24,000 bases of DNA from Oceanococcus sp. (GTDB lineage Bacteria > Pseudomonadota > Gammaproteobacteria > Nevskiales > Oceanococcaceae), in assembly GCA_041625325.1 (NCBI GenBank), contig JBFJTN010000007.1:15425-39424 (forward strand), written 5' to 3'. Position numbers and translations under genes: made by a program. Positions 5,009 to 24,000 of the stretch are shown one piece after another; the first letter of the stretch is position 1, and each line of letters opens with the position of its first letter. The notes beneath the pieces are model-generated. The model was not told the DNA's origin. It saw nothing but the letters and a program-made list of their open reading frames with translations, and did no database searches.

Positions 5009-5026
5009 ACCAAGCCTCCATTCCGG

Positions 5027-5818: not shown

Positions 5819-5853
5819 GCTCCTCTCCAATTTGCACCGAACCAGTGTGTATT

Positions 5854-5870
5854 GTGTATAGTGACGCTAT
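5854..5870 (+). promoter_or_regulatory. shared regulatory motif, site A (GTGTATAGTGACGCTAT) in the divergent control region between the OM-barrel operon and the thioesterase genes
   Basis: 15/17 identical to site C read on the minus strand (GTGTATAGTAACACTAT, 21669-21653). It also matches site B, which carries a 7-nt insertion. Overlaps a possible TTGCAC(5832-5837)-N19-TATAGT(5857-5862) promoter on the + strand. Confidence 0.45.
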
Positions 5871-5964
5871 CTATTATTCTGAGTCAACCGCCTGCTATGC
5901 GAAATCTCTGCACTCGCGATGAATTTCGCCGCTCCTGCAAGGCAGAACCGTCAGGGACGTAATT

Positions 5965-8650: not shown

Positions 8651-8667
8651 AAGAGGACCGTAACCCT

Positions 8668-9096
8668 ATGCCACTGAGAAAATTCGCTTTTTTTTTCGTA
8701 CTTGGCGTTTGCGCGAGCGCCACCGCTCTTTCGGCGCCGCCGGAAACCCACAGTCAACCGGGACGCTCAAGTCATCATGGCAAGGCCACACCAAGTGGCC
8801 TCTCCATAAATTTCTTGAAACCGCCTGAAGCCACTCGCATTCAGGCTGGAGAAAGCTATACGGTCGAGGTTGCAACTGAAGGTTTCAACACGTCGGGCGA
8901 TCACTGGCACCTCTACCTTGACGGCGAACTCCGAGCCATGGTTGGCGCCGGCAGGACCAGCTATCTGCTCACGCTGCCGGAGGACATTGCTATTGGCGAG
9001 CATGAACTCAAGGTCACAATCTCCAATTCAGATCACGAGGAATACGACCTTGCGGACTATCGAACCATTGTCGTAGTTCCCGGCCCAACACCTTGA
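8668..9096 (+). CDS. secreted small His-rich protein, DUF4399-like (possible metal-binding Ig-like domain)
   Basis: The track ORF begins at TTG 8647. ATG 8668 is preferred, with AGAGGA 10 nt upstream. Signal peptide MPLRKFAFFFVLGVCASATALSA/PPE, then SSHHGK. GDHWHLYLDGE and IGEHELKVTISNSDHEE resemble the DUF4399 pattern as I remember it. Confidence 0.5.
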   Translation: MPLRKFAFFFVLGVCASATALSAPPETHSQPGRSSHHGKATPSGLSINFLKPPEATRIQAGESYTVEVATEGFNTSGDHWHLYLDGELRAMVGAGRTSYLLTLPEDIAIGEHELKVTISNSDHEEYDLADYRTIVVVPGPTP

Positions 9097-9140
9097 ATCA
9101 TCCGCAGGGATCTTTTAATTCTCACCGAGTGACGTATGCC

Positions 9141-9701
9141 ATGCCCCGTTTGCTTTCGTCGCTCCTACTGCTCTATTCGACCTTCGTCAGCTCGGCGCTC
9201 GCGGCAACAGGCCCGGGGCACCGCATGATTTGGGATGCAAATGGCATGGTCATGGGCGAGAACACAGGCGACGCACTGCCTGAGGGCTGTAATGCCATTT
9301 CCGGTGATGTCGAGATTCATGTCAATGTGGGCAGGAAATGGGCAAGACCCGGACAGGTATTTGGCTACGATCGGAACGAATGGTCCGTGCCACCTTGCAG
9401 CAGAGTCACAGTGAAATTGCAGAATCACGACAATATTCGCCACATGTGGATGCTGCATGGCCTACCCCACTACCTTTATTTTAGGGGCATGTTCCACCTG
9501 GAGGCCGAGGGGGGAAGATCGATGCGCGGCACCTTCATCGCTCCAAACGGCCACCAGACCTATCTTGTTCACTGCGATATGGCGCAGCACACCGAAAAGG
9601 GTCTCAAGGCGCAGCTGAAAGTGGGAGCTGGAGGACCCGACATTCCCAACGTCTTTCGTTCCGAAGCTCCAACGCCAAAAGCGGATGTTCCGGAAAGGTA
9701 A
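9141..9701 (+). CDS. secreted cupredoxin-like copper protein (atypical ligand set)
   Basis: The track ORF begins at 9093. ATG 9141 gives a clean signal peptide MPRLLSSLLLLYSTFVSSALA/ATG. Candidate Cu ligands are RHMWMLHG (H-x4-H-G) and LVHCDMAQHTEKGL (H-C-x4-H-x4-L). Confidence 0.6.
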   Translation: MPRLLSSLLLLYSTFVSSALAATGPGHRMIWDANGMVMGENTGDALPEGCNAISGDVEIHVNVGRKWARPGQVFGYDRNEWSVPPCSRVTVKLQNHDNIRHMWMLHGLPHYLYFRGMFHLEAEGGRSMRGTFIAPNGHQTYLVHCDMAQHTEKGLKAQLKVGAGGPDIPNVFRSEAPTPKADVPER

Positions 9702-9896: not shown

Positions 9897-11393
9897 TCAA
9901 TGGAAGTCCTGCAGCCGCCAGGTAAACCCGATCTGTAACTGCCAGGTATCCATATGCACCTCAACCACCTGGTCTCTGGAATCCGGTCCGGCATCTACCT
10001 GGACAAGGGCGCCGGCCAGAAGATCGCCAGGGGAGCCCCCTCTTAATTCAATATTGCTCAAGCCATTTGTAACCCGCCGGCGAGCGCGAATCGCGTAGGA
10101 CACGGCAAGACCGATGTTGAGCCGAGAAGAATGATCCCAAGATAAGCCTGTCGCGATATGCTGACCGCCCACTGCGGGCGCCAGAACGGTCATGATCGCA
10201 TTATGTTCCTTTATCGGACTACCACCTCGACTGTAACCAGCTCGCCAGACCACGCGATCAAAATGCACCTGATACCCCAGCTTGACTACCGTCATCGCGC
10301 CCCAACCGAAACCGGGCCCTTTTGATCCGGCCAGACAATATTCACTGTCCTCCCTGGCAAGTGCGCCACCTGCTACAAATCGAGGCAGGACACATTGATT
10401 CACGAACTCACTCATGTCCGGCGATGCTGCGTATGGACGAATCTGGTCAAACCGCACCTGATCCCAATCCAGCATGACGCTCTGCCGATCCGTCAGACGC
10501 AGATGAATGCCGACATTGAAATTGCCCGGTATATCCAAAGAGGCCCCAACAAGAGCCCCTCGGTAGCGATCAAACTCTGTCTGACGCATTCGCGGCTGAT
10601 ATGAAACCCCGAATTCAAACCAATCCTTGGGTCGCAGGTGCAGGCCAACTCGATACCCGAAGCCCCAGGAATAATCCTGGCCTCGGTCGGACACATTGGC
10701 TGAATCCACCGAATATGGCGAAAAGGCCGACAATCCTCTCAGTTTCAATTCCTGGACGCCCAGCAAGGGCGCAAACCCAATGGCCAACCACTCCGCCGGC
10801 CGATAGCTGACACTGAGGTTTGCAACAATCTGAGTAAGCTGAATTCCCGCATCTGCACGTTGCGCACCGCACCGGTCACCCACGTTGCCGCCAGAAAGAG
10901 GAAAACCACCGGCGAAATCGCCAGAGCAACGCGATTCCGCACCAGGAATTCCGCGGGCGATAGCGGCACTGCCTTCGGTCAGCGTGGTGCCCAATCCCGC
11001 TCCATACACACCGACCGCCCAAGCCCAGCGATCAGACACCCGCCATACTCTTGCAATGCTTGGAGCAAAACCGGGTTTGTAAACTGATCGATAATTACCA
11101 GCGTCATATTCGAACAGGGAGTATGCGGATTCGGAGGACGTTTCGGTAGCGCTGTAGCCAGCCGTAGGCAAGCCAATAGCCAAATCCCAGGTACTCCCAG
11201 ATTCCAGAAAGGTACCCGAGGCCGGGTTGCGCAATGTTGCCGCAGCGTCCCCCAGAAAAGCCGTACCAGCACCTGCCATGCCCACCTGCACAGCCCCTAC
11301 TCCCGGCAAGGCGCTGCCATTGAATGCAAATGCCGGATAGCAGGACGCCACCGCTGTCAGCGCCAAGAGCACTGATGAATTAACCGGGCTCAT
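9897..11393 (-). CDS. FadL/TodX-family outer-membrane channel for hydrophobic compounds
   Basis: 498 aa. Signal peptide ..TAVASCYPAFA/FNG. N-terminal hatch-like segment GAVQVGMAGAGTAFLGDAAATLRNPAS is typical of FadL/TodX. The rest is a long Gly/aromatic-rich beta-barrel body. Confidence 0.75.
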   Translation of the reverse strand: MSPVNSSVLLALTAVASCYPAFAFNGSALPGVGAVQVGMAGAGTAFLGDAAATLRNPASGTFLESGSTWDLAIGLPTAGYSATETSSESAYSLFEYDAGNYRSVYKPGFAPSIARVWRVSDRWAWAVGVYGAGLGTTLTEGSAAIARGIPGAESRCSGDFAGGFPLSGGNVGDRCGAQRADAGIQLTQIVANLSVSYRPAEWLAIGFAPLLGVQELKLRGLSAFSPYSVDSANVSDRGQDYSWGFGYRVGLHLRPKDWFEFGVSYQPRMRQTEFDRYRGALVGASLDIPGNFNVGIHLRLTDRQSVMLDWDQVRFDQIRPYAASPDMSEFVNQCVLPRFVAGGALAREDSEYCLAGSKGPGFGWGAMTVVKLGYQVHFDRVVWRAGYSRGGSPIKEHNAIMTVLAPAVGGQHIATGLSWDHSSRLNIGLAVSYAIRARRRVTNGLSNIELRGGSPGDLLAGALVQVDAGPDSRDQVVEVHMDTWQLQIGFTWRLQDFH

Positions 11394-11458: not shown

Positions 11459-12052
11459 ATGCCCCGTCCACGATCTTCAGCCCAGTCCATCGAAGCAGCG
11501 CGTACTGCGTTACTAGAACATGCACTGTCCTTGTATTTGGAAGAAGGATTCGCTGGGCTGACGCTACGCAGGCTGGCCAAGCGAGCCGGCACGAGTCACA
11601 CCTACCCCTACCACTCTTTCGGCAATAAAGACGGTCTTCTGCTAGCACTACGTGTTTACGTTACGAAGCGCTTTGTCGCTGCCATCCTGGCCGCCGATCC
11701 GGAAGAACCGGTGTTGCCAGAGAGCAGATTGCGCGCCATGGCGCATGCAATGATTGAGTTCGCTCAGCACAGAACAGCTGAATACGTTCTCCTGTTTACG
11801 CTGGAGCAACCATCTCCGGACGCCTGTCCGGAGCTGATTTCAGAGCGCGAAGTGCTGTCATCCCACGTGAACCGGGTGGTGGAGAAATTTCAGGCGCGCA
11901 AAGGCAGGGAGGAAGATCCCGATGGTCTGACGCAAATTCTCTGGGCCTGCATTCATGGCTTGGCCAGCCTGCACATGGCCCGCCAGCTGGTGCACGGCCA
12001 GAGTCTGGAATCACTTCTTGGGCCGATGCTTGATCGCATCCTAGCCAAGTGA
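11459..12052 (+). CDS. TetR/AcrR-family transcriptional regulator
   Basis: 197 aa. N-terminal HTH EEGFAGLTLRRLAKRAGTSHTYPYHSFGNKDGLLLAL, followed by an all-helical C-terminal ligand domain. Confidence 0.9.
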   Translation: MPRPRSSAQSIEAARTALLEHALSLYLEEGFAGLTLRRLAKRAGTSHTYPYHSFGNKDGLLLALRVYVTKRFVAAILAADPEEPVLPESRLRAMAHAMIEFAQHRTAEYVLLFTLEQPSPDACPELISEREVLSSHVNRVVEKFQARKGREEDPDGLTQILWACIHGLASLHMARQLVHGQSLESLLGPMLDRILAK

Positions 12053-12077: not shown

Positions 12078-12659
12078 TTACACGCCATTTGTACTTTTTC
12101 TTTCGGCCGTGAACACGTAAACGAGTAGCGATACGCCCATTGCCAGAATAAAACCGAGCAAATAGCCGGCGTAACTCTTCACGCCCACCTCGAAAGGAAA
12201 CACCGAACGATAGACTGTTTCACCGTCTCTGGCCGTCAGCATGCCAATGTACCAGCCGGCTTCGTCGAACTCATGGGAAAAGGTCAGACTGCCCCTGGGA
12301 TACTTGCTATAGGGCAGATTGACCAAGGTATTCCGCTCGATATCGTCTTCGTCGCCAAGATCGTCGTAGGTTCCACTCGCGCCGAGCCCGTTGACATCCT
12401 TGAGCACTCGAAACTCGACATCCATGCCTCGCAATCGACGCTCTATAAAATCCACTACGATAATGGCTTTGCCAAGCTCCGGAATGTCTTCACAGAATTC
12501 CTGAGTGGCGCGCGCTTCCGGTTGATAGCCGGTGAAATGCGCTCGCATTCCTCCGATATTCATGACACAAGTGTCATCCTCCACCGACACGCCTCCGTGC
12601 CCGGAAGCTGCGTGGGTGAACACGAGGGCGAGCAACGCGAAGAAAGACCGACGAGGCAT
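12078..12659 (-). CDS. CuMMO operon fourth gene: secreted domain plus C-terminal TM anchor (PmoD/AmoD-position, PmoD-like topology)
   Basis: The ATG at 12659 shares one nucleotide with the pmoB-like TGA (TGATG), indicating translational coupling. Signal peptide MPRRSFFALLALVFTHAASG/HGG. Cys/Met/His cluster DDTCVMNIGGMRAH, with a second Cys 25 residues later (EFCED). C-terminal helix YLLGFILAMGVSLLVYVF. Homology to PmoD was not verifiable by eye. Confidence 0.6.
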   Translation of the reverse strand: MPRRSFFALLALVFTHAASGHGGVSVEDDTCVMNIGGMRAHFTGYQPEARATQEFCEDIPELGKAIIVVDFIERRLRGMDVEFRVLKDVNGLGASGTYDDLGDEDDIERNTLVNLPYSKYPRGSLTFSHEFDEAGWYIGMLTARDGETVYRSVFPFEVGVKSYAGYLLGFILAMGVSLLVYVFTAERKSTNGV

Positions 12660-13891
12660 CAACCGAACACCGGAATCATGGGTCCGCCAAACTCGACCAG
12701 GTAACGTTGCCCCTTATCGTCGAAGAAGTGCAGGAGACCCGCAACCACGGCATCGGGGGAAGCGATCATCGTCGTCATACGCTCTGTCTCCCACAGCGCG
12801 TCGTCGGCATATATGGTGATGCGTTTCGTTTCGCCAGGCCCAATCGGCCCACCCTCCACTCTCAGAGCTTCAGCAGCCACCAAGTCGTGGCTGTCCCGGG
12901 GCTGGACATCCAGCACTTCACTGTTGATGAAGCGCAGGTTGCCCGCAGCGAATTCCCCAATGCGTAGCGGTCTGTCGCCCTGATTTGTAATATCAAATTC
13001 CACCTTGAAGCTACGGCCGGGAATGCGATACCGGGCCTCTTTTACTGAAAGCACGATCGGTGGCGAATTCAAAGGCGCCTTGGGACTATCGACTTTCCCC
13101 GTCTGCAGGGGCGTTGTAATCGGCCAGGTTTCTTGCGCATACATATATCCTCCGACGATCAAAGTCAGAGTAAGCACCAGATAGATGCCACCGATGCGCC
13201 TGTCAGCCGGAGTAAGAATCTCGTCGGCCTTCGCCGGCCCCAGTTCCGCAACATCACGAAACCTAGGCACAATGATCGGGCACTTGGTCAGCCAGTAAAC
13301 GAACCAGCTGAGGCCAACTGCGAACCAGAGAAACGACCAGAATTTGACGTTACCCCAGCCATAGGTCTCCAGATCAATGGTCTTTCCTAGCAGCGTTTCT
13401 GCCGTGTTGGAGAATTCCTCGTTGCCATTGACAACCTCGACCCAGAGGCCTGGCCCAATAATCGGACCCGTGCCTTTGACATTGATGACAGGATGCACGT
13501 GATAGCGCCCTGCTTTTCGTGCACGCATCCGAATCTCGTAATCGTAGAGATGACCGGCCTTGAACGACGTGGATCTAATCATCGGCACGCCGTTGACCCG
13601 CGAATCGAGGCGCACGAAGCTGGGCCCCGGCACCCCAATGTTGAGAAATGAGGTCCCTTCGATGCTTTCGACGTGGTGGGGCCAGAATTTGGATGGCATG
13701 AACTTGCCGCTTACCACGAGTTCCTCGTTGATCGCCAACTTGGTCGTGGAAACGTTCAAATCTATCCAGTGCACCGTACGCATCCTCAGCTGAGGCATCT
13801 GCGCACGTTCGCCATGCGCGAAAACGTACTCCGGAAATGTGATCATCAGCAGCAGGAGGAACCAGATGCCTGTCAGTTTGCTTTTCCGCAT
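12659..13891 (-). CDS. pmoB: copper membrane monooxygenase subunit B (PmoB/AmoB family)
   Basis: 410 aa. Signal peptide ..FPEYVFA/HGERAQ leaves an N-terminal His (His-brace). TVHW lies 15 residues later and GRYHVHP supplies the HxH pair. Two central TM helices (FWSFLWFAVGLSWFVYWL, IGGIYLVLTLTLIVGGYMY) sit between two beta-rich domains. RBS AGGGAG precedes ATG 13891, 9 nt after the pmoA stop. Confidence 0.9.
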   Translation of the reverse strand: MRKSKLTGIWFLLLLMITFPEYVFAHGERAQMPQLRMRTVHWIDLNVSTTKLAINEELVVSGKFMPSKFWPHHVESIEGTSFLNIGVPGPSFVRLDSRVNGVPMIRSTSFKAGHLYDYEIRMRARKAGRYHVHPVINVKGTGPIIGPGLWVEVVNGNEEFSNTAETLLGKTIDLETYGWGNVKFWSFLWFAVGLSWFVYWLTKCPIIVPRFRDVAELGPAKADEILTPADRRIGGIYLVLTLTLIVGGYMYAQETWPITTPLQTGKVDSPKAPLNSPPIVLSVKEARYRIPGRSFKVEFDITNQGDRPLRIGEFAAGNLRFINSEVLDVQPRDSHDLVAAEALRVEGGPIGPGETKRITIYADDALWETERMTTMIASPDAVVAGLLHFFDDKGQRYLVEFGGPMIPVFG

Positions 13892-13900
13892 GATTGCTCC

Positions 13901-14665
13901 CTATACGATTTTGCGGATCCAAATGGCTTTGGCCCCTAATGATCCAATCCAAACCCAGAACCAGTAGTTAAGAATATTGAGGAACCCCGCGAAAACCGCG
14001 GTGAGCGGGGTGACCGCTTCACCGAATGTTCTCAGGGTCGATTCTTCAATGATTCTCACGTACTCGGGAATTGCGGTCCGAATGTACTCGTACCCCATCA
14101 AATCGGCGACGGTCACCATGGTTCCATGCATTTCCAGAGGTACCTGAAACGGTGCCAGGAGAGGCCAGTTCAACGGGTATATCAAAAGACCGAAAGCAAA
14201 GCCCCCGAAGAGCCCGGTCCAGAAGAAACTGCGCGTGAGAAGCAGCATGCAATCCAACAGCAGTCCTAGCCCGATATAAGTCGAAGGCCAGACGAAATTC
14301 ATCGGGAAATCGGCGAACAGATGGAAATTGAGATATCGGCTGACCCAGGCTGCGGCGGTCAGGCACAAAATGGTGAGCGTTCCACCCAGCGGAAGCCGCA
14401 GACGATCCCAGAGCAGATATCCGAAAACGCCAGGCAGTACGGTGAGCGCCAAGGGGGTGACGAGTGGCCACCAGCGACGATCTCTCCAGTCGACCCAGTA
14501 ATCCCAGTCTCCGACCAGCAGGGCAAAGTGAAAGCTGAATATTCCTGCGAACAGCAGCACCACAAGCGGAATTGCAAGCAGGTCGACCTGGACGAAGAGC
14601 TTTCTCTGCTCCTGAGCTGAAGTCAGACCGTAAGGGGCCGAATCAGATTGAGTGAGATCAGACAT
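13901..14665 (-). CDS. pmoA: copper membrane monooxygenase subunit A (PmoA/AmoA family)
   Basis: 254 aa. Hallmark segments LLVGDWDYWVDWRDRRWWP and YIRTAIPEYVRIIEESTLRTFG. Multiple TM helices. Confidence 0.92.
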   Translation of the reverse strand: MSDLTQSDSAPYGLTSAQEQRKLFVQVDLLAIPLVVLLFAGIFSFHFALLVGDWDYWVDWRDRRWWPLVTPLALTVLPGVFGYLLWDRLRLPLGGTLTILCLTAAAWVSRYLNFHLFADFPMNFVWPSTYIGLGLLLDCMLLLTRSFFWTGLFGGFAFGLLIYPLNWPLLAPFQVPLEMHGTMVTVADLMGYEYIRTAIPEYVRIIEESTLRTFGEAVTPLTAVFAGFLNILNYWFWVWIGSLGAKAIWIRKIV

Positions 14666-14734
14666 GAGTTAACGATTCCGTCAGGCAGCCGCCAGCCACC
14701 CAATCAGGGCAGCTCAATTAGGGAACGGCTCGGT

Positions 14735-14772
14735 AAAAAAAGGAAGGGCACACGGAAACCGCATGTGTGCCC
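14735..14772 (-). terminator. intrinsic-terminator-like hairpin plus U-tract between pmoC and pmoA (attenuator or RNA-stability element)
   Basis: Minus strand reads GGGCACAC-atgcggtttcc-GTGTGCCC-TTCCTTTTTTTACC. The stem is 8 bp and GC-rich (14765-14772 / 14746-14753), the loop is 11 nt, and the T-run is the A7 at 14735-14741 on the + strand. It lies about 35 nt after the pmoC stop and about 70 nt before the pmoA ATG. Confidence 0.5.
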
Positions 14773-14806
14773 CTCCCTCGGGGGAGAACGCTAGATACCT
14801 TGGCGA

Positions 14807-15586
14807 TCAGCCATGAGATCCAGCGAGGGGCTTCGAACCGAGTTCAGGACTGGCGTCGCTTCCGACGACGCGACTGAGTTCAGTAATCCTACGGAGCATC
14901 TGAACCAACAGCCCTCCAGCCGCAAAGGCAGACCAACCGAGAAGTACGAACCCCCAGTGTATGGGTGCTGCGAAGAGTTCTTCCGCATAGAAGAAGGTAT
15001 GCCCCCACTCATTCAGGCCAAGGTTCGGCATGATCATGACCGGCCCTGCCACCACCAAAGCGAATGAAACGGAAATTCGATTTGCAAACTCCGGCAACCT
15101 GGTACGCGCATACACGAATGAAGTCATCGCGCTGATGATGAAGCACGGAATACCGAAGTAGAAAAGGACGATGTGAGTCGGCGTGAAATCCGTGTCCCTG
15201 ACCGTCACCTGATGCCACGCGGCATCGGCCTCGGTGAAGGGTGATGCCACAAGGTAGGCGATCAGCCCGAACATCAGTACCAGACTGAGCAGCACCAGAT
15301 ATCGACGTAGCTCTTCCGCCGGTTTCAGAGCATCCAGATTTTTGTCACGTGTCCAGTACAGCCAGCCAGCAATGCCGGCTCCGATCGCAGTGAGCACGGG
15401 CAGCTGAATGTAAAGAAGAGTCATCCAGTATTTCTGGAATTCCGGCGAAAAATAGTCGAGCCCGACAGTGAAAGAAGTCGCATGCTGATAAATGCGATAC
15501 ATCCCGAACACAACCCCGACGAAAAGTACCGCCATGAAAAATTTTGCCCAGGGTGCGCCTGGTGATTGGTAGTTCGTTTCAGACAT
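14807..15586 (-). CDS. pmoC: copper membrane monooxygenase subunit C (PmoC/AmoC family)
   Basis: The track ORF starts at 15673. ATG 15586 (MSETNYQSPGAPW..) is preferred, with AGGAGA 7 nt upstream, giving 259 aa. Motifs: GLDYFSPEFQKYWM, EADAAWHQVTVRDTDFTPTH (D-x3-H-x12-H), NEWGHTFFYAEELFAAPIHWGF (N-x3-H-x13-H). Confidence 0.92.
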   Translation of the reverse strand: MSETNYQSPGAPWAKFFMAVLFVGVVFGMYRIYQHATSFTVGLDYFSPEFQKYWMTLLYIQLPVLTAIGAGIAGWLYWTRDKNLDALKPAEELRRYLVLLSLVLMFGLIAYLVASPFTEADAAWHQVTVRDTDFTPTHIVLFYFGIPCFIISAMTSFVYARTRLPEFANRISVSFALVVAGPVMIMPNLGLNEWGHTFFYAEELFAAPIHWGFVLLGWSAFAAGGLLVQMLRRITELSRVVGSDASPELGSKPLAGSHG

Positions 15587-15644
15587 GTCGTTTTCTCCTA
15601 GAGATTGCACCGAGCTGCTCGCCTGATATTTTTCAGACACTGCG

Positions 15645-15673
15645 ACTGTACACCGGCCGTCGCAATGAGTCAA
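15645..15673 (-). promoter_or_regulatory. candidate sigma70 promoter of the CuMMO operon: TTGACT-N17-TACAGT
   Basis: On the minus strand, the -35 TTGACT is at 15673-15668, followed by a 17-nt spacer and the -10 TACAGT at 15650-15645. The predicted 5' UTR to ATG 15586 is about 50 nt. Confidence 0.4.
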
Positions 15674-15696
15674 TAGCGTCTAGCATTACTATACAT
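15673..15696 (-). promoter_or_regulatory. shared regulatory motif, site B (minus strand ATGTATAGTAATgctagacGCTAT), abutting the -35 of the pmoC promoter
   Basis: TGTATAGTAA is identical to site C and GACGCTAT is identical to site A. The two halves are separated by a 7-nt insertion relative to A and C. Confidence 0.45.
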
Positions 15697-15812
15697 AGTG
15701 GGCACCGCCATATCCCAGCCGCCTGGCTGTGCGAGCAGGAACCAAACTTTTCCGGGACACCACCACGATGTGGCGAAGGAGCGTTTGTTGATGAGCCGTC
15801 ATGGAAGGCCGT

Positions 15813-16586
15813 TCAAGCGAACTGGGTATCCGACGTTTTCGAAAGAGGAGCTGGCTCCACCGACTCCGTCCGTTCCAAAAATGACTGCACATAGGCCTTC
15901 AACTTCCGCTGGTGAACAATGCTGAATATTGCATTGACCGCAGGAATGACAACTTCGACCAAGTTCCCTACCTCATCGGCCGACAGTGTTTGAATACGCT
16001 CCCGAAGGATGCTGATCTCGCGCTCCACCACCTGATCCGCGACCTCATAGATGAAAAACAGATCCTTCGGGCTGAAGCCTCGGTCCTCGCGGAGCCCCGC
16101 ATCACGAATTTTCAACCAGAGTCGAGTAATCTCCACATCAGATTCCGTGGCGACCCCGCTCTTGGCCAAGTAAAGGAAATCGCGCAATTCCTTCTGCTCA
16201 CGCCGGGACAAGCCCATCTCGCTCGCAAGTTCGCTCGGACTCGTATCCACAGGCAGATCCCCCTGATCCTGAATCAGGCGACTCCGGATCCCCGCGAGGA
16301 TGTCAAGTTGAGTCTTCGAAAATTCATAATCTTTCGAGCCCTGCAGCAAACTTTTGATCGCCTTGAGTGGCAAGAACCTCTCGTGCTGAAGCTTCTGGAT
16401 CAGCTGAAGCGTCTCCAGGTGACGATCCGAATACCAACCCAGATTTCGCGAAGTCTTGACCGGCGGGGGCAACAACCCCTCTTTCATGTAAAAGTGAATG
16501 GCTTGTCGGCTGAAACCGGATTTCGCCATAACCTCACTGATCTTATAGGGATGCCCAGGGGGTCCGACAGCCTTCTTTCTACTCAT
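15813..16586 (-). CDS. MerR-family transcriptional regulator with a long Cys-free C-terminal domain
   Basis: 257 aa. HTH YKISEVMAKSGFSRQAIHFYMKEGLLPPP...GWYSDRHLETLQLIQKLQ. Strong RBS GAGGAG. The roughly 170-aa helical C-terminal extension contains no cysteine. Confidence 0.85.
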   Translation of the reverse strand: MSRKKAVGPPGHPYKISEVMAKSGFSRQAIHFYMKEGLLPPPVKTSRNLGWYSDRHLETLQLIQKLQHERFLPLKAIKSLLQGSKDYEFSKTQLDILAGIRSRLIQDQGDLPVDTSPSELASEMGLSRREQKELRDFLYLAKSGVATESDVEITRLWLKIRDAGLREDRGFSPKDLFFIYEVADQVVEREISILRERIQTLSADEVGNLVEVVIPAVNAIFSIVHQRKLKAYVQSFLERTESVEPAPLSKTSDTQFA

Positions 16587-16616: not shown

Positions 16617-17591
16617 TCAGGGCCAATTATAGTCCCTCACCCCTGAATAGGTAGAAGCAAAAATCCTGCCACCGTGCATCAAAAGTCCGGTCAATGTTGA
16701 AGACTCATCGGTGGTTCCATCGACATCCAGATCGAGGTGATTCACATGGATTTTCCCTTCCCGCCTGCGCAACTCGAATACATCCCGTCCTGCAGCAAGC
16801 AGCACTTCCCCTGATGGTCCCGATTGTCCGCCAAATACGGATTTTGTCGTCCCCAGATCGACAGATTCCCAGGCACCGTCAATCGGTTCGACCGCGAAAA
16901 ATGTGCTGCCTCGCATCCCGGCGACAACGGCCCCGTGTTGCCCTGCCGGCACAATGGTGAACAAGGAGCCGTCGTACCCCACGTTTCCGACGCGCCACTG
17001 AGTACCGTCGGTTGAATGGGCGAACATGCCCATTTCACCCACCAGCAGGAGTGACCCATCATTGAGTTGACGCAACGTGTTGAGATGCGGGGGAAGGTCC
17101 TGAAACTCTTCCACATCAACAGGACCCCATGTGCCACCGCCATCTACTGACCGAAGGAACAGACCGAAGGCACCGACGGCAAAGCCCTCCCTTTCATTCA
17201 GGAAAAACACATCGAGAAATGGCTTGTTCAGATCTGGATGCCGATGAACGATCCGCCAGGTCAGACCACCATCCTTCGTCCTGAGAATGACCGCATCGTG
17301 GCCCACGGCCCAACCATCCTTTCCGATCAGATGCACAGCATTGAGCAGTGTACTGACCGGGCTGGGAACCTGGCGCCAAGCACCCTCTGCATCAGACCGG
17401 CGAAGAATAATGCCGCGTTCACCGACGCCCACAACCACTCCCTGGCTGGCGCTCACATCATTTATCTGGGCGGAAAGCGCCAATGGCATGATCACGGATG
17501 GAATCGCCTCGCTGGCGCTCACACCGAGCCAGGCCGGCGCCATTATCGAGATGCATAGCGTGAAAGCGATTTTTTTCTGACGACTGAACAT
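16617..17591 (-). CDS. secreted BNR/Asp-box beta-propeller protein (Ycf48-like)
   Basis: 324 aa with a signal peptide (KKIAFTLCISIMAPAWLGVSA/SEA). Repeated Asp-box-like elements: KDGGLTWRIV, VDGGGTWGPV, TDGTQWRV. RBS GAGGTG. Confidence 0.7.
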   Translation of the reverse strand: MFSRQKKIAFTLCISIMAPAWLGVSASEAIPSVIMPLALSAQINDVSASQGVVVGVGERGIILRRSDAEGAWRQVPSPVSTLLNAVHLIGKDGWAVGHDAVILRTKDGGLTWRIVHRHPDLNKPFLDVFFLNEREGFAVGAFGLFLRSVDGGGTWGPVDVEEFQDLPPHLNTLRQLNDGSLLLVGEMGMFAHSTDGTQWRVGNVGYDGSLFTIVPAGQHGAVVAGMRGSTFFAVEPIDGAWESVDLGTTKSVFGGQSGPSGEVLLAAGRDVFELRRREGKIHVNHLDLDVDGTTDESSTLTGLLMHGGRIFASTYSGVRDYNWP

Positions 17592-17621
17592 AAAACGGGC
17601 ACCTCGCGCCTGGAGCGCAAT

Positions 17622-20165
17622 CTAGAACTGATACTTGACGAAAAAGCCCAGGTTATCCCTGTCCTGATACAGGTTGTGCTGCCCAGCCCCCCAAAAAGCG
17701 TTGTAGGTGAGGTTGAGCGACAGAGACTCCTGGTAGCGAAGTTCAAGGATGGTGAAGAGCTGATTGCGTCCTTCAACAAAGTTGCCGCCAGGCCCGGGGG
17801 CATTACCCTGGATATCCGTCTGCCAGATCAGGAGCGGCGCAATGCTGATACCCGGCAGAACGGATTCATATCGAGTCAGGGCAACCAGGCGGTACCCCCA
17901 AGAAAACTCGTCAGCAAATGCTTCACGAGGAGCTTGGAATGGATTGAACCTCAAGCCATCGGGGCCAAAACTGCATGTTTCAGTAGCCGCACAGGCCAGC
18001 CGTGAGCGGTCGGCGCCACTACCATCGGCGCCCGCGCTCGCATGAGTGGTGGAAGACAAGGGCCCCTCAATCTGCAACTCATCGAAGCTGGGCATGTTGC
18101 TGACCCAGGTCGCAGCCAGTTCATGAAGCAGAATGACCTGATCTGCGCCGACCCAGTTCTCGGAGCCGCCAAGCACGCGGGTGGCCCCCAGATTGAACTG
18201 GAATACCTTCCCCGGAATCCAGCCCTGGATATAACTTTCGGGTGGCGTCTCGCCGAGCGGAATGTTTCGGTAGGCCTCAAGGAAACTTGGGAAGGAACGC
18301 CGGGAGCCCGGCACTGAGCCCACAGCGAGATTGATCGTGTCGAAACGGGGATGCTCACCGTTCTCATCAATGTAATCGTTGCGCGGGTACAGCGAATACG
18401 TGCTTCCGCCATCCTCGGTAAAGCCCAGCGTATTCGTGCTCCCCGCGCATTGAATATCCTCGTGATCGCAGCGCGAAAGGGACGGCCCCAGAGCGGTAAA
18501 CAGCACGTCAACCAAAGCAACCTGAAGCGGCACGTTGGGACGATAGGACAACTCGCCCTGGAAAGAATACTCGCCATAGGTGGTGTTGAAACTGACGCCA
18601 TACATCTGCAGGTCTTCCGGATACTCCAACAATACGTCCGGCTGGTCCAGCGGGACCACATTGGAGAACGGCTGGCCGGGCTTGGGAGTCAGCAAGCCTG
18701 CGAGACCAGTCAGAATCCCGGCCGGAGAAGTGATGCCCTGTTCTGCCGCCCCGAGATCATTCGCACCAACTGCCGGACTCAGAGCCAGCAACTCCCCGAG
18801 ATCTGTCACCAACTGCTCGACCCCGAGCGTAGAGCTGGACAAGGGCAGGTTATCGCAGACCTCGAGCAACTCGAAAGTATTTGTCGCATCAACTCCTGCC
18901 GCATTTCCTTCACGGCGGGCACAACTGGCGGTAGCCGAAATCGCACTGACATAGGGCAGCTTCGAGTGATAATTCATAAAGTAAAACCCGAAACCAGTCC
19001 CGTTATTCAACTCCTCGGCATAATAGTTGAGCGAAATACCGAATTGTCCCTGATCCCTCGGATTGCGATCAGCGATGCGATCAATTGTTGCCGAAGTATT
19101 CGCAATTGTGGTGAGCGGGTTATTGAGCGGAAATCCGACACGCTCGGTATCGATAGCCGAACCACCAAAGCTGGCATTGACGGTATCTTCTAGGTTATAC
19201 GTCCCCAGATCGGCGAATGACATCAGGCTTCCGGGGGTGGGAATCTCAATAGGCTCCCATTCGTATTGATAGTAAGCGTCCATCGACACGCCACCAAACA
19301 GAGGCATGGAAATGCGCGCCATACCGACCGGGGAGAACAGTTCCTCAAGCAGGCCAAAACCGATGCGATAGAGGCTGTTGACGTTTACCGGGTTGGCCTG
19401 GTTGATACTGTTGATGACAGCGACAGTGCTTTCGCCCCAGTTGATCTGCTGACGCCCAATACGGACCAATGCGACCCGATCTCCCGGCAACTCAAAAGTT
19501 CCGAAGATGTTGGCATCCAGCAAGTCGTAGCGCATGCCCAACTGACCGAGTGCTTCATCATCCTCACGAATGGCACGCACGGGAGCGCCGGCACCATAAA
19601 CAACGGGCAGGTATCGATTCTCGATCAGGTTTCCAGTCGGTCCCGGCGTGTCGGCGAATGCGACTTCGTCAGCATTCTCCGGAGTAATGGCATTCGGCTG
19701 ATTGGTCACAAAATCCTTGTAATTCGTATGATCGTAAATCGCGACCGTGCGGAGAAACAGCCCGAACTCACCTGAAGTAATGGTCAAATCCTGATTGAAC
19801 TTGAATGCCGCCTGCGTGATGTCGCCCTTGTCATAGAACAGATTGCCATCATCGAAGTTGTTTGATGCCATCCCCGGGGAGCGCGCAAGCTGCTCCGCCG
19901 GGTAGTTTTGCAGTCTGTGCAAACCCTGGCATGCCTGGTAGACCCCCCCACAAACATTCGGGTTGAGGCTGCCCTTGCCGACCAGATAATCCTTTCTGTC
20001 CTCGATACGCCACTGGGCGCCCAAGGTTGCCGTATTGTTCAGAACGGCCTGGAACGGTTGATCAAGCAGGCTGAAACTGAATGTCGCAGCAAAAGCCGAA
20101 GGTACTGCCGCAACCGCGCCGAACAGCGCCAGCAGCCCGTGCGAAACGGAACGTTTTACTGTCAT
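17622..20165 (-). CDS. DUF1302-family outer-membrane protein, unusually long (847 aa)
   Basis: The track ORF starts at 20219. ATG 20165 is preferred, with GAGGAGA 8 nt upstream. Signal peptide MTVKRSVSHGLLALFGAVAAVPSAFA/ATF. Family-like segments TLGAQWRIEDR and VALVRIGRQQINWGESTVAVINSINQANP, recalled from memory of DUF1302 consensus. The C-terminal ..FFVKYQF is typical of OM barrels. Confidence 0.7.
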   Translation of the reverse strand: MTVKRSVSHGLLALFGAVAAVPSAFAATFSFSLLDQPFQAVLNNTATLGAQWRIEDRKDYLVGKGSLNPNVCGGVYQACQGLHRLQNYPAEQLARSPGMASNNFDDGNLFYDKGDITQAAFKFNQDLTITSGEFGLFLRTVAIYDHTNYKDFVTNQPNAITPENADEVAFADTPGPTGNLIENRYLPVVYGAGAPVRAIREDDEALGQLGMRYDLLDANIFGTFELPGDRVALVRIGRQQINWGESTVAVINSINQANPVNVNSLYRIGFGLLEELFSPVGMARISMPLFGGVSMDAYYQYEWEPIEIPTPGSLMSFADLGTYNLEDTVNASFGGSAIDTERVGFPLNNPLTTIANTSATIDRIADRNPRDQGQFGISLNYYAEELNNGTGFGFYFMNYHSKLPYVSAISATASCARREGNAAGVDATNTFELLEVCDNLPLSSSTLGVEQLVTDLGELLALSPAVGANDLGAAEQGITSPAGILTGLAGLLTPKPGQPFSNVVPLDQPDVLLEYPEDLQMYGVSFNTTYGEYSFQGELSYRPNVPLQVALVDVLFTALGPSLSRCDHEDIQCAGSTNTLGFTEDGGSTYSLYPRNDYIDENGEHPRFDTINLAVGSVPGSRRSFPSFLEAYRNIPLGETPPESYIQGWIPGKVFQFNLGATRVLGGSENWVGADQVILLHELAATWVSNMPSFDELQIEGPLSSTTHASAGADGSGADRSRLACAATETCSFGPDGLRFNPFQAPREAFADEFSWGYRLVALTRYESVLPGISIAPLLIWQTDIQGNAPGPGGNFVEGRNQLFTILELRYQESLSLNLTYNAFWGAGQHNLYQDRDNLGFFVKYQF

Positions 20166-20221
20166 TAATTCATCTCCTCGGAAAATGGCGTCGGGGCACC
20201 CTCCCCGACGCCATGGCAACC

Positions 20222-21577
20222 CTATTTGGAAGCTTTGCGCTGGACCGAACTGGCTTCGAAGAACTTCTCGTCATACTTGACGGTCGTGTCGTAAGGCTGG
20301 TCTTCGTTAAACATGGCCGTCACGAAATAGCGCCCGGAATTGAAGTGATAAATAACTTCCGGAACCGTGGAGGAGGCCAGCACAGCCTGAAACTGAACGA
20401 GGTGACCTTCCTGGAACTGCATCAACTGACCCTGATGATCGTAGTCATCGATCATCACGATGTTCCAGGTGTCCTCATCGAAATACATGGTGCGCTTGCT
20501 GAACGTATGACGCTGATCTGGCTTGTTCTCCGCCTCCACAACCCACACGCGATGTAGTTCATAGCGTGGTAGATTCTGGTTGATATGGCCTGGACCAGCG
20601 ATGTCCGCATACTTCACTGAATTACCGGCAATCTTGTACGAGTTGTAAGGAATCAGCATTTCTCGCTTGCCCAGCAGCTTCCAGGTGAAACGTTCCAGGA
20701 CGCCGTTGTACATGTCGACCTGATCGTAAAACTGGTGACCATCCGTTCCCTCGTAGGGGTTGTCGCAGCAGACAGCTGGCGCCCTGCGAATCCTTTTCAA
20801 GGCCGGCGCGTACAGCCAGGCCGCGCGACCTTCTGGACCGAAACCGGCTTTTTCGTGCACCAGAATGTAGGTGCCCGCAATGCGCGGCGGAGAGATGGTC
20901 TGGGACAAGTAGCGGATGAATGTCGTGCCGGGAAGCAATTCGGCCGGATCGGGGTTGATGATGCTCGCGTAATCGAATTGCACATCCTCAACGATCTTGG
21001 TCAAGGAAAACTTTCCATCCGGCTGCACGATCATCTGATTGTTGTAGCGACGGATATTCTCACCACGCCACTTGGAACGATGGTTCCAGGGCAACTCCGC
21101 CCCGCTCCGGGGAATCGGGAAAGGGAACCCCACATACGCGCCCCGCGGGTTGTCCACACCTTCAAGCGATGCCCGCGTGGCGTTTTTCATGGTCTCTTCC
21201 TTGATCTTGTCAGGGAAATTGGCCACGCGACGCGTCGGATAGACAATCATTTTGTAGGTTTCAGGGTACCTCCGGAACAGTTCTTTGTGACCCGCAGACA
21301 ACTTGTCAGCGTGTTGCGCGAGATTCGCGGAGGACACGAGGTATGCTGGCCTATCAGCTTCGACTTCCGGATTCGAAGGGAATTCTCCGCTGAGCTTTCC
21401 GAAAGCCTCGATTGGCGTCCACTCCGGAATGCTTCCATCCTTGTTACCAGCCCGCTCCGCGCCGACAGGTGTCAGCGACTTGCCCAGCTCAGCCGCTTCG
21501 TCGGCGCTCACGCCCGCCAGAGCTGTTCCAGGGGCGGCTGCCAGCGCCGCCAAAAAAAGCCAATTGCCTCGTCTCAT
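20222..21577 (-). CDS. DUF1329-family periplasmic/outer-membrane-associated protein (LolA-like fold family)
   Basis: 451 aa. Signal peptide MRRGNWLFLAALAAAPGTALA/GVS. N-terminal AAELGKSLTPVGAERAGNKDGSIPEW matches my recollection of the DUF1329 consensus. RBS GGAGAG. Confidence 0.75.
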   Translation of the reverse strand: MRRGNWLFLAALAAAPGTALAGVSADEAAELGKSLTPVGAERAGNKDGSIPEWTPIEAFGKLSGEFPSNPEVEADRPAYLVSSANLAQHADKLSAGHKELFRRYPETYKMIVYPTRRVANFPDKIKEETMKNATRASLEGVDNPRGAYVGFPFPIPRSGAELPWNHRSKWRGENIRRYNNQMIVQPDGKFSLTKIVEDVQFDYASIINPDPAELLPGTTFIRYLSQTISPPRIAGTYILVHEKAGFGPEGRAAWLYAPALKRIRRAPAVCCDNPYEGTDGHQFYDQVDMYNGVLERFTWKLLGKREMLIPYNSYKIAGNSVKYADIAGPGHINQNLPRYELHRVWVVEAENKPDQRHTFSKRTMYFDEDTWNIVMIDDYDHQGQLMQFQEGHLVQFQAVLASSTVPEVIYHFNSGRYFVTAMFNEDQPYDTTVKYDEKFFEASSVQRKASK

Positions 21578-21648
21578 GCTGTCTCTCCACTGTGATTCCG
21601 ATTCCGCGCACCCAGCTTCGGGAGCACCCTCTGCCTGATGTGCGAATG

Positions 21649-21679
21649 TTGCATAGTGTTACTATACACGGTATATAAT
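21649..21679 (+). promoter_or_regulatory. candidate promoter of the RND gene, TTGCAT-N19-TATAAT, with shared motif site C (21653-21669, ATAGTGTTACTATACAC) inside the spacer
   Basis: Read directly: -35 at 21649-21654, -10 at 21674-21679. The spacer carries the dyads ATAGT-gtt-ACTAT and GTGT-tactat-ACAC. An alternative reading is TTGCAT-N17-TATATA. Confidence 0.4.
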
Positions 21680-21794
21680 CACAGCGGCGCTGGCAGATCA
21701 AGCCGTCTGGTCGATTTCGTAAGATTTGCCGATGTCGCATCGCCTTGCAGCTGCCAGCCGATCAGTCATTTACCTCCCAATCGGGGACGAACTC

Positions 21795-24000
21795 ATGCAT
21801 TCCAACAACCTCACCGGATTCAGCAAATGGTACGTCGACGTTACCGTTCCGCTGATTTTTTACAGGAGAGGTCCGCTTCTGACGGTACTTCTGCTGATCA
21901 CGGGAATCCTTGCCTGGCAGGCGTCTCAACTCCGACTGGATGCTGGGTTCGAAAAGATGCTTCCGCTTGAACATCCCTACATTCAGGTGTTCAAGCAGTA
22001 TGAAAAGGAGTTCGGCGGGGCCAACCTTGTACTGCTTGCTGTCAAGCAAAACGAGGGTGCCGGCGATATCTATCAGGCTGATTTCATGCAGACCCTGCGT
22101 GACGCCACTGACGCGATGTTCTTCCTGCCCGGAATGGATCGCTCAAGGGTCAGTTCCATCATGACCCCCGATGTCCGCTATCTGGAAGTCATGGAATATG
22201 GCTTTCGAGGGGGCAATGTCGTCCCCGCAGACTTTCGACCAACACCGGAGATGCTCGAACAGGTCAGAAAAAACGTTTCCAAAGCGGGAATTATCGGACG
22301 CCTGGTCTCCAATGATCAGACGGGCGCCATGGTTTTCGGGGAACTCCTCGAACGGGATCCCATCACCGGGGCAAAACTTGACTATTTCGAAACCGCCGAC
22401 CGGATTGAGGCTGTCCGTCAAAGGTTCATCAGCCCGGATCGTTATGAATTCGTGCTGAAGTCGGATCACGACAACCTGTCGGCTGGTGATGTCATCCACG
22501 TCGCGTACGAAGACCCGCGGAGCCTGTTCTTCCAGTGGGAAACATTCAATCTGCGATACCAAGGGCCGGACAACGCCTTCAAAACGGCCCCGTTCAAGGG
22601 CTCGGACTTCGAGATCAGAAAATCCGCAAACCCCGACTACAACCCGAACATCGATGTGCATGTGATCGGCTTTGCGAAAATCATGGGCGACGTCGCCAAT
22701 CACGCGGGAGAAGTCGTTGGCTACTTCGCCCTGACGATTTTCCTGGTCTGGATGGTGCTCTGGCTGTACACCGGCTCGCCTGTGATTTCTTTGTTGCCGC
22801 TGTCCTGTGCGCTTCTTGCAGTGGTGTGGGAGCTCGGGCTGCTGCACCTTCTTGGCTTTGGTCTCGACCCCTTCGCGATTCTTGTGCCCTTCCTCGTCGT
22901 TGCGATCAGCATCTCACACGGCATTCAAATTACCAGCTTCTGGCTACTGGAAGCCGCCGAAAAGAGCCTGAGCAGCTTTGACGCATCCCTGTCCACCTAC
23001 AAGCGACTCGTTGTCCCAGGGATCACTGCGCTGATCACGAATGTGGTGGGCTTCGCGACGCTTATGTTGATCCCCGTGGGGATCGTGCAGGAAATGGCCA
23101 TCAACGCCAGCCTCGGCCTGATTGCTGTCGTGGTATGCAAGAAAGTCCTCCTGCCCTGCATGCTGTCCTTCGCACCGATCAAGGACCCACAGAAATTCCA
23201 GGATCACCAATTCCGACGCGACAGGTTGCTCGCGCCGATCTGGCACAAAGCGTCCTACCTGACCCACAAGCCGATTGCCCTTATCGCCCTGGCAGCTGTC
23301 GCAGTAACATGGGGCTGGGCCGAGATCGTCAAACAGGATCTGGCCATCGGAGAACTCCACGCTGGCACCCCAGAGCTTCGACCGGACTCCAGATACAACC
23401 TGGACACTGACGCCATCGTAGAAAACTTCGCTATCGGCGTTGATGTCCTCAAGATTATTGGCGAGAGCAAAGCTGACAGCTGTATCCAGCATGAGGTCAT
23501 CGATACGATCGACCGGCTGTCCTGGCATATGCGGAACACACCGGGCGTCCAATCGACTTTGTCTCTGCCACAAATGCAGAAACTGGTCTACAACAGCTAC
23601 AACGAAGCGAACCCCAAGTGGAACACCTTGCCACGCGAATCAGGCGCATTGGTCGTCACCGTCCAGCCCTTCCCCAGTTCAACTGGTCTGCTGAACGAAG
23701 ACTGCAGTGCAATGCCACTTTTCGTTTTCACGGCAGATCACAAGGCCACAACTATCGATACGGTGATTGAATCCTTCCACGCGTTCAACGACACCCTCCC
23801 CTCCGAGTCACCGATCAGTTTCCGACTTGCAACTGGGAATGTCGGGGTCATGGCCGCCACCAACGAAGTCGTTCGAGATACAGAGCCGACAGTGCTGTTC
23901 TGGCTTTACCTTTGCATCGGATTCGCCGTCTTCATGTCTTTTGGAAGGACGCTTGTCGGCGTGATCTGCATCCTCACGCCGCTGATCGCTGTATCGGTCA
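21795..24000 (+). CDS. RND-superfamily (MMPL/HpnN-like) inner-membrane exporter, C-terminus beyond window
   Basis: Not in the ORF track because there is no stop within the window. I translated it manually: the frame from ATG 21795 stays open to 24000 (735 codons). It reads MHSNNLTGFSKWYVDVTVPLIFYRRGPLLTVLLLITGILAWQASQLRLDAGFEKMLP.., then a large periplasmic loop, then a TM bundle (VVGYFALTIFLVWMVLWLY..LLPLSCALLAVVWELGLLHLLGFGLDPFAILVPFLVVAISISHGIQ), then a second loop and the start of a second TM bundle. Confidence 0.8.
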   Translation, partial: MHSNNLTGFSKWYVDVTVPLIFYRRGPLLTVLLLITGILAWQASQLRLDAGFEKMLPLEHPYIQVFKQYEKEFGGANLVLLAVKQNEGAGDIYQADFMQTLRDATDAMFFLPGMDRSRVSSIMTPDVRYLEVMEYGFRGGNVVPADFRPTPEMLEQVRKNVSKAGIIGRLVSNDQTGAMVFGELLERDPITGAKLDYFETADRIEAVRQRFISPDRYEFVLKSDHDNLSAGDVIHVAYEDPRSLFFQWETFNLRYQGPDNAFKTAPFKGSDFEIRKSANPDYNPNIDVHVIGFAKIMGDVANHAGEVVGYFALTIFLVWMVLWLYTGSPVISLLPLSCALLAVVWELGLLHLLGFGLDPFAILVPFLVVAISISHGIQITSFWLLEAAEKSLSSFDASLSTYKRLVVPGITALITNVVGFATLMLIPVGIVQEMAINASLGLIAVVVCKKVLLPCMLSFAPIKDPQKFQDHQFRRDRLLAPIWHKASYLTHKPIALIALAAVAVTWGWAEIVKQDLAIGELHAGTPELRPDSRYNLDTDAIVENFAIGVDVLKIIGESKADSCIQHEVIDTIDRLSWHMRNTPGVQSTLSLPQMQKLVYNSYNEANPKWNTLPRESGALVVTVQPFPSSTGLLNEDCSAMPLFVFTADHKATTIDTVIESFHAFNDTLPSESPISFRLATGNVGVMAATNEVVRDTEPTVLFWLYLCIGFAVFMSFGRTLVGVICILTPLIAVSV

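Follow-up and report, generated by a model that had tools for sequence, protein, structure and literature searches.

Organisation of the locus

The analysed window is a 24,000-nucleotide (nt) stretch of an Oceanococcus sp. genome (contig JBFJTN010000007.1) in which four genes for a predicted envelope transport system lie directly upstream of a copper membrane monooxygenase (CuMMO) operon. Genes were annotated from a listing of the open reading frames (ORFs) and from Pfam and NCBIfam scans of the window proteins, and start codons were taken from an independent gene call on the identical Logan contig L080. On the minus strand, genes for a DUF1329 protein (20222-21577; PF07044, E 2.9e-119), a DUF1302 outer-membrane beta-barrel (17622-20165; PF06980, E 1.1e-149), a Ycf48-like BNR beta-propeller (16617-17591; PSII_BNR/Ycf48 PF14870, E 1.8e-20) and a MerR-family regulator of 257 amino acids (aa) (15813-16586; MerR_1, PF13411, E 3.1e-18) follow one another with gaps of 56, 30 and 30 nt, and pmoC begins 226 nt further on. 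On the plus strand, the gene for a HAE3/MMPL-type resistance-nodulation-division (RND) inner-membrane transporter (21795-24000, running off the window end; MMPL PF03176) diverges from the DUF1329 gene across a 217-nt control region (21578-21794). Both Pfam and the independent gene call match exactly the gene identities and gaps given by the initial annotation, and the divergence of the RND gene from the same control region is confirmed.

The CuMMO operon, pmoC-pmoA-pmoB-pmoD (12078-15586, minus strand), lies downstream of the module and was recognized from Pfam and a PDB match. It has the CuMMO gene order C-A-B, with pmoC at 14807-15586 (AmoC, E 1.8e-78), pmoA at 13901-14665 (AMO, E 3.1e-80) and pmoB at 12659-13891 (Monooxygenase_B, E 4.9e-117), and is completed by a pmoD-like fourth gene at 12078-12659 (193 aa; PmoD homologue, PDB 6cpd, E 5e-12). 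In a homologue search, the nearest named relative of PmoC belongs to O. atlanticus (83% identity), followed by Nevskiales (Solimonas, Panacagrimonas, Sinimarinibacterium, Stagnimonas) and then by some Burkholderiales (Aquabacterium, Polaromonas, Rhodoferax). Relatives of this CuMMO clade were reportedly described by Rochman et al. in 2020 (as cited in PMC8630023) from alkane-utilising Betaproteobacteria.

AmeABCD of Castellaniella defragrans 65Phen is a tetrapartite HAE3-RND set made up of DUF1302, DUF1329, COG4447/Ycf48-like and HAE3 RND proteins (PMC6394551). All four protein families are detected in the window, which makes the locus an AmeABCD-type system by composition. The RND gene scores 29.8 bits against the Pfam MMPL model (cut-off 20.5), and its top NCBIfam match is the HAE3 model TIGR00921 (E 3.5e-26), under the curated cut-off and with the gene incomplete in the window. 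Judged from the orthologues of 874-881 aa in O. atlanticus, which are 89% identical, about 735 of roughly 875 codons lie inside the window. The label AmeD-like is a family-level one taken from these profile models. The gene also shows weak similarity to Patched-SSD in Pfam (E 0.0023) and to the HpnN model TIGR03480 (E 3.3e-4). A sequence search of PDB structures returned no match for either the RND protein or DUF1302.

The AmeB-like DUF1329 protein has a type I signal peptide, no lipobox cysteine and a LolA_like match in Pfam (E 7.5e-11). Its AlphaFold2 (AF2) model, with a predicted local distance difference test (pLDDT) of 73.5, matches LolA3 9tp6 (5.6e-13), DUF1329 4z48, 3bk5 and 3buu in Foldseek, among them structures that PMC6394551 cites for AmeB. 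The protein falls in the LolA superfamily and is predicted from its model to be a LolA-fold periplasmic carrier. The AmeA-like DUF1302 protein bears the marks of an outer-membrane protein, a signal peptide and a C-terminal ...YQF read from the sequence, and the best folds for its AF2 model (pLDDT 77.5) in Foldseek are the chitoporin 7vtz, OccAB1 5dl5 and AlgE 5iyu. At 847 aa it is a long form, compared with 605 aa for AmeA and 541 positions in the Pfam model; Nevskiales DUF1302 proteins are about 250-300 aa longer than both and carry large loop insertions. Eight cysteines (C72, C79, C415, C437, C566, C573, C725 and C731) are invariant in alignment A4, which suggests four loop disulfides. The AF2 model of this barrel also has a helical insertion at about residues 420-495. 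The AmeC-like BNR protein has a signal peptide and is of the COG4447/Ycf48-like kind (PDB Ycf48-like 2xbg, E 2.7e-18).

Compared by description and family only, the Ame set and the present locus share the four families and a setting in a hydrocarbon catabolic island. The Ame genes form a single operon, ameA-B-C-D, whereas here DUF1329, DUF1302 and BNR follow one another, RND is divergent and a MerR gene has been added; the composition is retained and the co-directional A-B-C-D cassette is not. An A-B-D-C order is found in a paralogous module type (L090, L171 and L173). Castellaniella is an anaerobic monoterpene degrader, while the neighbour here is a CuMMO. The ameABCD genes lie within a monoterpene island and are induced on alpha-phellandrene, and their authors propose a tetrapartite exporter (PMC6394551); inducibility and the exporter proposal are features of AmeABCD.

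A shared operator and a candidate regulator

With up to two mismatches allowed, the 20-bp palindrome ATAGTG-N8-CACTAT has four matches at three sites in the window, against 0.23 expected, and none of 100 shuffles reached four. All three sites are intergenic. Site A (5851-5870, plus strand) is in the divergent region between an outer-membrane protein (OMP) beta-barrel gene and two thioesterase genes, site B (15673-15692) is upstream of pmoC in the MerR-pmoC spacer (15587-15812), and site C (21653-21672) is in the RND/DUF1329 spacer. The motif that had been marked at site C is accordingly real. A simpler description of the shared motif as a plain -10 box (TGTATAGT) was dropped, since alignment with three related lineages shows that the palindrome is the conserved unit.

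The palindrome is conserved at the promoters of both pmoC (alignment A6) and the module in these lineages, and the CACTAT half-site of site C is invariant in four lineages (alignment A5). Exact copies of ATAGTG-N8-CACTAT occur upstream of pmoC in O. atlanticus, L177 and L179, and in the divergent region of the module in L177 and in the CYP153-linked locus L101. The control region at 21578-21794 also contains two -10-like boxes placed back to back near 21676, TATAGT for the minus strand and TATAAT for the plus strand. Site B abuts a sigma-70-like promoter (TTGACT at 15673, a 17-nt spacer, and TACAGT ending at 15645), and no terminator-like hairpin is present between MerR and pmoC (15587-15812). 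Given this promoter and the lack of a hairpin, the CuMMO probably has its own promoter plus read-through from the module. Because the pmoC promoter carries the same operator as the divergent promoter of the module, the two are probably switched on together. The operator is also found at a module without a CuMMO, which is most simply explained by the pmoC promoter having joined the regulon of the module. With its third copy at site A, the putative regulon would reach beyond the CuMMO and the module.

The MerR-family protein is a tentative candidate for the regulator and for the binder of the shared operator. It has no cysteine among its 257 aa, and so no C-terminal cysteine ligands, and only its N-terminal helix-turn-helix matches the CueR, CadR and MerR models of NCBIfam, far below their cut-offs. 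A copper-sensing role was rejected because of this lack of cysteine, which means more generally that the protein is not a metal-thiolate sensor. The protein shares 60% identity with the MerR at the end of the CYP153-linked module of L093, 56% with those of L180 and L007, and 49% with MerRs that diverge from pmoC in CuMMO loci without a module.

Distribution of the module beside alkane hydroxylases

CuMMO loci were collected in a scan of one genome per GTDB species, whose returns included neither O. atlanticus nor the source genome; the Oceanococcus-type loci come from exact-protein look-ups, and the orthologous modules (DUF1329 57-82% identical) from exact look-ups and a metagenome scan. Adjacency was counted from tblastn or precomputed Pfam matches in 10-kb flanks of a non-random, partly redundant sample with kinship ignored, and independence of the juxtapositions was judged by differing gene orders.

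The adjacency of the module and the CuMMO is not unique to this genome and is shared by O. atlanticus and two metagenomic lineages. An identical order, RND and divergent DUF1329-DUF1302-BNR-MerR-pmoCABD, is found in O. atlanticus, in TARA contigs and in L179. L177/L178 have the same order minus MerR, with a P450-ferredoxin-AraC cluster beyond the RND gene. Since the flanks differ between lineages, the block from RND to pmoD is kept as a unit. Three further arrangements bring the two together: in Sinimarinibacterium (L095), pmoCABD-copCD is followed by a hydrolase and a GMC gene and then by RND-DUF1329-DUF1302-BNR; in Panacagrimonas L180 about 9 kb separate the module from the pmo-copCD cluster, and MerR and a P450 come after the module; and in Panacagrimonas SAW216 (L090) a paralogous module, DUF1302-DUF1329-RND-BNR, diverges from pmoC. 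Among 45 related pmoCAB loci, a complete module lies within 10 kb in 2 and a lone DUF1302 in 3, and none of 80 metagenomic module loci contains a CuMMO. The link between the CuMMO and the module is real and confined to one lineage.

Orthologous modules also accompany the other two classes of alkane hydroxylase. The module is directly 3' of AlkB-rubredoxin in Solimonas sp. K1W22B-7 (L096), Solimonas sp. SE-A11 (L181), L102 and L113; in Solimonas the genes run alkB-RND-DUF1329-DUF1302-BNR in operon-like fashion, with gaps of 9-77 nt and an adjacent AraC regulator. The paralogous module type stands behind AlkB-rubredoxin in L171 and L173. Clusters of CYP153A adjoin the module in L093, L101 and L177. 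The CYP153A systems of L093 and L101 include ferredoxin, reductase, AraC and an AlkJ-like GMC oxidoreductase, and the P450 of L093 is identified as CYP153A by PDB 8b2p (E 2.6e-267). Solimonas sp. SE-A11 has both a CuMMO (L010) and AlkB in one genome, and its module is beside AlkB. Altogether, a CuMMO, AlkB or CYP153 lies within 10 kb in 11 of the 15 complete modules with at least 8 kb of flank on each side. As a rough estimate of the chance expectation, a genome of 4-5 Mb with a few hydroxylase loci would have only a few per cent of its genes that close to one.

CuMMO, AlkB and CYP153 are united by substrate and product and not by metal or fold. For this reason the module in Nevskiales is best read, from its genomic context, as a standard alkane-island accessory that is placed beside whichever hydroxylase is present. 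It is not dedicated to the CuMMO, contrary to the initial annotation: the gene identities and the recurrence given there are upheld, the CuMMO link holds at the level of the lineage, with a shared operator, and the claims of CuMMO dedication and of unknown function are not supported.

The idea of a plasmid-borne block was rejected, as megablast against 72,556 plasmids gave no match and plasmid DUF1329 homologues, like those of Pseudomonas, are less than 42% identical to the one in the window. In O. atlanticus and the TARA contigs (L084-L089), the RND-to-pmoD block has IS3-type transposase genes, together with phage-type integrases or a further insertion sequence (IS), at its borders, and a transglutaminase-like gene beside RND is shortened in four of the six loci (123 vs 230 aa). 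These borders suggest mobile-element traffic around the block. In L177/L178 (3336-18893), the module sits between the CYP153-type P450-ferredoxin-AraC cluster and pmoCABD without a MerR gene, an arrangement that looks like an intermediate of the CYP153-linked and CuMMO-linked types. A transglutaminase-core gene (PF01841) recurs beside the module (L085 497-1189, L177 6478-7161, L093 16524-17213, L101 and L167), and a SOI-domain gene (PF26512) is often 3' of BNR or MerR. Both may be further members of the unit, whose equivalent position in the present locus is past the window end.

Partial sets occur as well. A lone DUF1302 gene, 60% identical to that of the window, lies between pmoCABD-copC-copD(cytochrome c fusion)-166aa and a downstream DUF3450-ExbB Ton-like cluster in L091 (16716-20795), L092 and L002 (16647-19040), loci with no DUF1329, RND or BNR gene. 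DUF1329 paralogues adjoin DUF3450-ExbB-ExbB-ExbD-TPR clusters in L131, L134 (702-11326), L136 and L144. Some barrel and carrier paralogues may be coupled to a Ton-like motor and not to an RND pump. The CuMMO genes themselves vary (L005 3001-4826, L006 9004-10741, L055, L071 and L072): some related loci have tandem or inverted duplicates of pmoC, and many of the PmoC matches at 50-57% identity are orphans that lack pmoAB, as in Macondimonas and further gammaproteobacterial metagenome-assembled genomes.

Possible function and surrounding genes

How Gram-negative oil degraders handle very hydrophobic substrates and products between their two membranes is poorly understood, and the DUF1302/DUF1329/BNR/RND set is widespread. 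To call it a set of unknown function is out of date, since its composition is that of AmeABCD, for which deletion phenotypes exist. Growth of the ameABCD deletion mutant suffers on non-functionalised monoterpenes but not on acetate or oxygenated monoterpene derivatives; the mutant is also less tolerant of limonene, even when acetate is supplied, and accumulates more Nile Red (PMC6394551). The four genes were cofit in Shewanella, Kangiella and Pseudomonas in the study of Price et al., who also recorded DUF1329 genes in islands for phenanthrene, p-cresol and steroids and proposed from pleiotropic phenotypes that a cell-wall component is exported (10.1101/072470). According to Thompson et al., P. 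putida needs the four genes on Tween 20 and butyl stearate (10.1101/2020.07.04.188060). The recurrence of the set in Pseudomonas and marine Gammaproteobacteria, and its tie to hydrophobic or ester substrates, had been stated correctly in the initial annotation. The sets of P. putida (PP_0765/PP_0766 and PP_2018/PP_2019) and Shewanella amazonensis (Sama_1588-1591) comprise the same four families as the window, are cofit and are required on hydrophobic esters, while the Pseudomonas set differs in being split into two separate loci, in its LuxR-type regulator and in having no alkane hydroxylase link. In AlphaFold predictions the binding partner of DUF1329 is either DUF1302 or the BNR-RND pair (PMC10866462), with an interface predicted template modelling score (ipTM) of 0.84 for the DUF1329 interaction (PMC13499233), and the Foldy authors suggested that DUF1329 shuttles in the transport of a substrate (PMC10866462). 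Our literature search found no paper in which this module is tied to a CuMMO, or in explicit terms to AlkB or CYP153, and no described CuMMO cluster that includes it, as had been supposed; one P. aeruginosa study does no more than list the module in a table near an almA-like gene.

From these observations we infer how the four proteins would assemble and work. The reading that we prefer, and hold with modest confidence, is that the module serves as a general accessory of alkane islands and transfers hydrophobic molecules between the two membranes, most likely outward, for tolerance or membrane homeostasis. Its four parts would be an HAE3 RND pump in the inner membrane, a Ycf48-like propeller partnering the pump, a LolA-fold DUF1329 carrier and an 18-strand-type DUF1302 barrel. 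Driven by the proton gradient, the pump would draw hydrophobic molecules from the inner membrane, perhaps alkane as substrate, alkanol as product or neutral lipids of a similar kind, and hand them to the DUF1329 carrier, which would then dock on the barrel. With net transport outward, hydrocarbon and alcohol in the membrane would be kept tolerable while the hydroxylase works. In the Oceanococcus-like lineage, the pmoCABD operon was placed directly downstream of the module and probably recruited to a shared regulon. To our knowledge, characterised bacterial RND transporters generally move their cargo outward, which is one reason for favouring this direction. Others are that the two characterised HpnN members, HAE3 hopanoid transporters and relatives of this pump, are described as moving cargo outward in work cited in PMC6394551, and that the ameABCD mutant is hypersensitive and retains dye.

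Parts of this scheme have counterparts in known systems, with differences. HpnN of Burkholderia and Rhodopseudomonas is likewise an HAE3 RND protein, proton-driven and moving a hydrophobic lipid from the inner to the outer membrane; it works without dedicated periplasmic or outer-membrane partners, and the similarity of the two at the level of models is weak. With the Lol pathway the module shares the LolA fold of DUF1329 and a proposed soluble carrier that shields hydrophobic cargo through the periplasm, whereas LolA/LolB serve an ABC transporter and lipoprotein cargo and the module would have an RND motor and a beta-barrel receiver. FadL, AlkL and TodX are also outer-membrane barrels of hydrocarbon-degradation clusters, and one of them is encoded in the window (9897-11393, minus strand). 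In contrast to DUF1302, they are 14-strand barrels with a hatch domain that work by passive lateral diffusion without periplasmic or inner-membrane partners.

Several points weigh against an outward-directed alkane-island accessory. The direction of transport is not settled even for AmeABCD, and the growth defect confined to hydrocarbons, like the ester defect of P. putida, is also compatible with uptake or with a general defect of the envelope. The FadL/TodX channel in the window could serve substrate entry independently. Four well-flanked modules (L098, L114, L116 and L174) have no hydroxylase within 10 kb, and most related CuMMO loci have no module nearby. L177 retains the operator without a MerR gene at that position, which makes the assignment of the regulator to MerR a weak one. 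For this module and for every Nevskiales copy, function is predicted from the genes, and the tblastn-based counts in 10-kb flanks carry the sampling and kinship limits given above.

Transport in the opposite direction seems to us possible, if unlikely. The barrel would admit alkanes, the LolA-like carrier would take them across the periplasm, and the RND/BNR pair would insert them into the inner membrane beside the hydroxylase, in analogy to NPC2 -> NPC1 sterol transfer. Delivery of poorly soluble substrate was among the options named in the initial annotation. This would suit the position of the module next to the first alkane-oxidation enzyme in three non-homologous classes, the restriction of the AmeABCD mutant defect to non-functionalised hydrocarbons (PMC6394551), the inability of P. 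putida mutants to use exogenous fatty esters (10.1101/2020.07.04.188060), the shuttling carrier of the Foldy authors (PMC10866462) and the weak Patched-SSD similarity. It agrees poorly with the outward transport by HpnN and by RND proteins generally, and a FadL/TodX homologue for entry is already in the window. The higher limonene sensitivity of the ameABCD mutant with acetate and its stronger Nile Red signal point instead to an efflux or barrier function (PMC6394551). We regard as rather doubtful the fuller proposal that the module is a bacterial NPC2-to-NPC1 counterpart, an alkane route through the periplasm that feeds AlkB, CYP153 or the CuMMO; if it were true, the Oceanococcus-type locus would be a ready-made, co-regulated cassette for uptake plus oxidation. 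Export of a surface lipid is improbable in our judgement. Here the cargo would not be hydrocarbons but an outer-membrane component, a wax ester or a biosurfactant-like lipid, serving oil contact or a barrier. The pleiotropic phenotypes behind the proposal of Price et al. (10.1101/072470), the DUF1302 and DUF1329 proteins of Delftia outer-membrane nanopods (as cited in 10.1101/072470), the passage of hopanoids towards the outer membrane by the HAE3 relative HpnN (as cited in PMC6394551), and the WS/DGAT wax-ester synthase and OmpA genes that adjoin RND in Panacagrimonas L180 are all in keeping with it. However, in the loci examined no genes of lipid biosynthesis consistently accompany the module, and the tight alkB operon and the inducible island-borne copies suggest a substrate-linked and not a housekeeping role.

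The absence of a complete module from the 10-kb surroundings of 43 of the 45 related pmoCAB loci, the absence of a CuMMO from all 80 metagenomic module loci, and the IS3 transposases and integrases that border the O. atlanticus block could be taken to mean that a resident envelope system has no functional tie to the CuMMO, whose operon landed alongside via mobile elements in one lineage. We think this very improbable, as the order is retained in four lineages with differing flanks, the operator of the module is present at the pmoC promoter, and the CuMMO and the module are juxtaposed in three other arrangements. Hardly credible is a helper specific to the CuMMO, with the Ycf48-like protein as an assembly factor of the membrane enzyme, or with copper supplied through the DUF1302 barrel. 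Ycf48 is indeed a photosystem II assembly factor, and the lone DUF1302 genes of L091, L092 and L002 do stand behind pmoCABD-copC-copD. Yet the BNR gene always travels with RND, also in organisms and loci without a CuMMO, and the MerR protein lacks cysteine for copper sensing. For the four-gene module, a role of DUF1302 in copper uptake was discounted, given that AlkB and CYP153, which the module also accompanies, are iron enzymes.

The four-family set was already known, and its context here is new. The association with alkane hydroxylases across classes is of greater use, since through it the function of a widespread 'DUF' system becomes testable. The tracking of three hydroxylase classes within one order, together with the operator shared with the CuMMO, narrows the likely cargo to alkanes or their immediate products. 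O. atlanticus (GCA_002088235.1) and Solimonas are isolates with sequenced genomes and offer tractable test organisms. Some non-methanotroph CuMMO clusters come with an envelope transport module, which is relevant to heterologous expression and to guesses about substrate range.

The remaining genes of the window, assigned from Pfam and NCBIfam, mark it as a hydrocarbon-oxidation island, the kind of setting in which ameABCD is found. On the minus strand lie an enoyl-CoA hydratase (561-1262), an acyl-CoA synthetase (1733-3358), a GMC alcohol oxidoreductase (3383-5008) and the OMP beta-barrel gene (5027-5830). The two thioesterase genes (5965-6899) and a TetR gene (11459-12052) are on the plus strand, and the FadL/TodX channel gene stands before the latter. 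In Panacagrimonas L180, the interval between CuMMO-copCD and RND (1662-6632) encodes a pyrroloquinoline quinone (PQQ) alcohol dehydrogenase with a cytochrome c domain, the WS/DGAT wax-ester synthase and the OmpA-family protein, which hints at a link to alcohol and wax-ester metabolism. The window further contains a multicopper-oxidase (MCO) cluster (7106-9701, plus strand) that encodes a 514-aa MCO, a 149-aa protein and a 202-aa Cu-oxidase_2 protein. Such a cluster is also directly 3' of pmoD in the distant CuMMO loci L024, L039, L077, L052 and L015, with MCO1 51-63% identical, and may serve CuMMOs as a linked copper module in place of the copC-copD genes of Panacagrimonas and Sinimarinibacterium.

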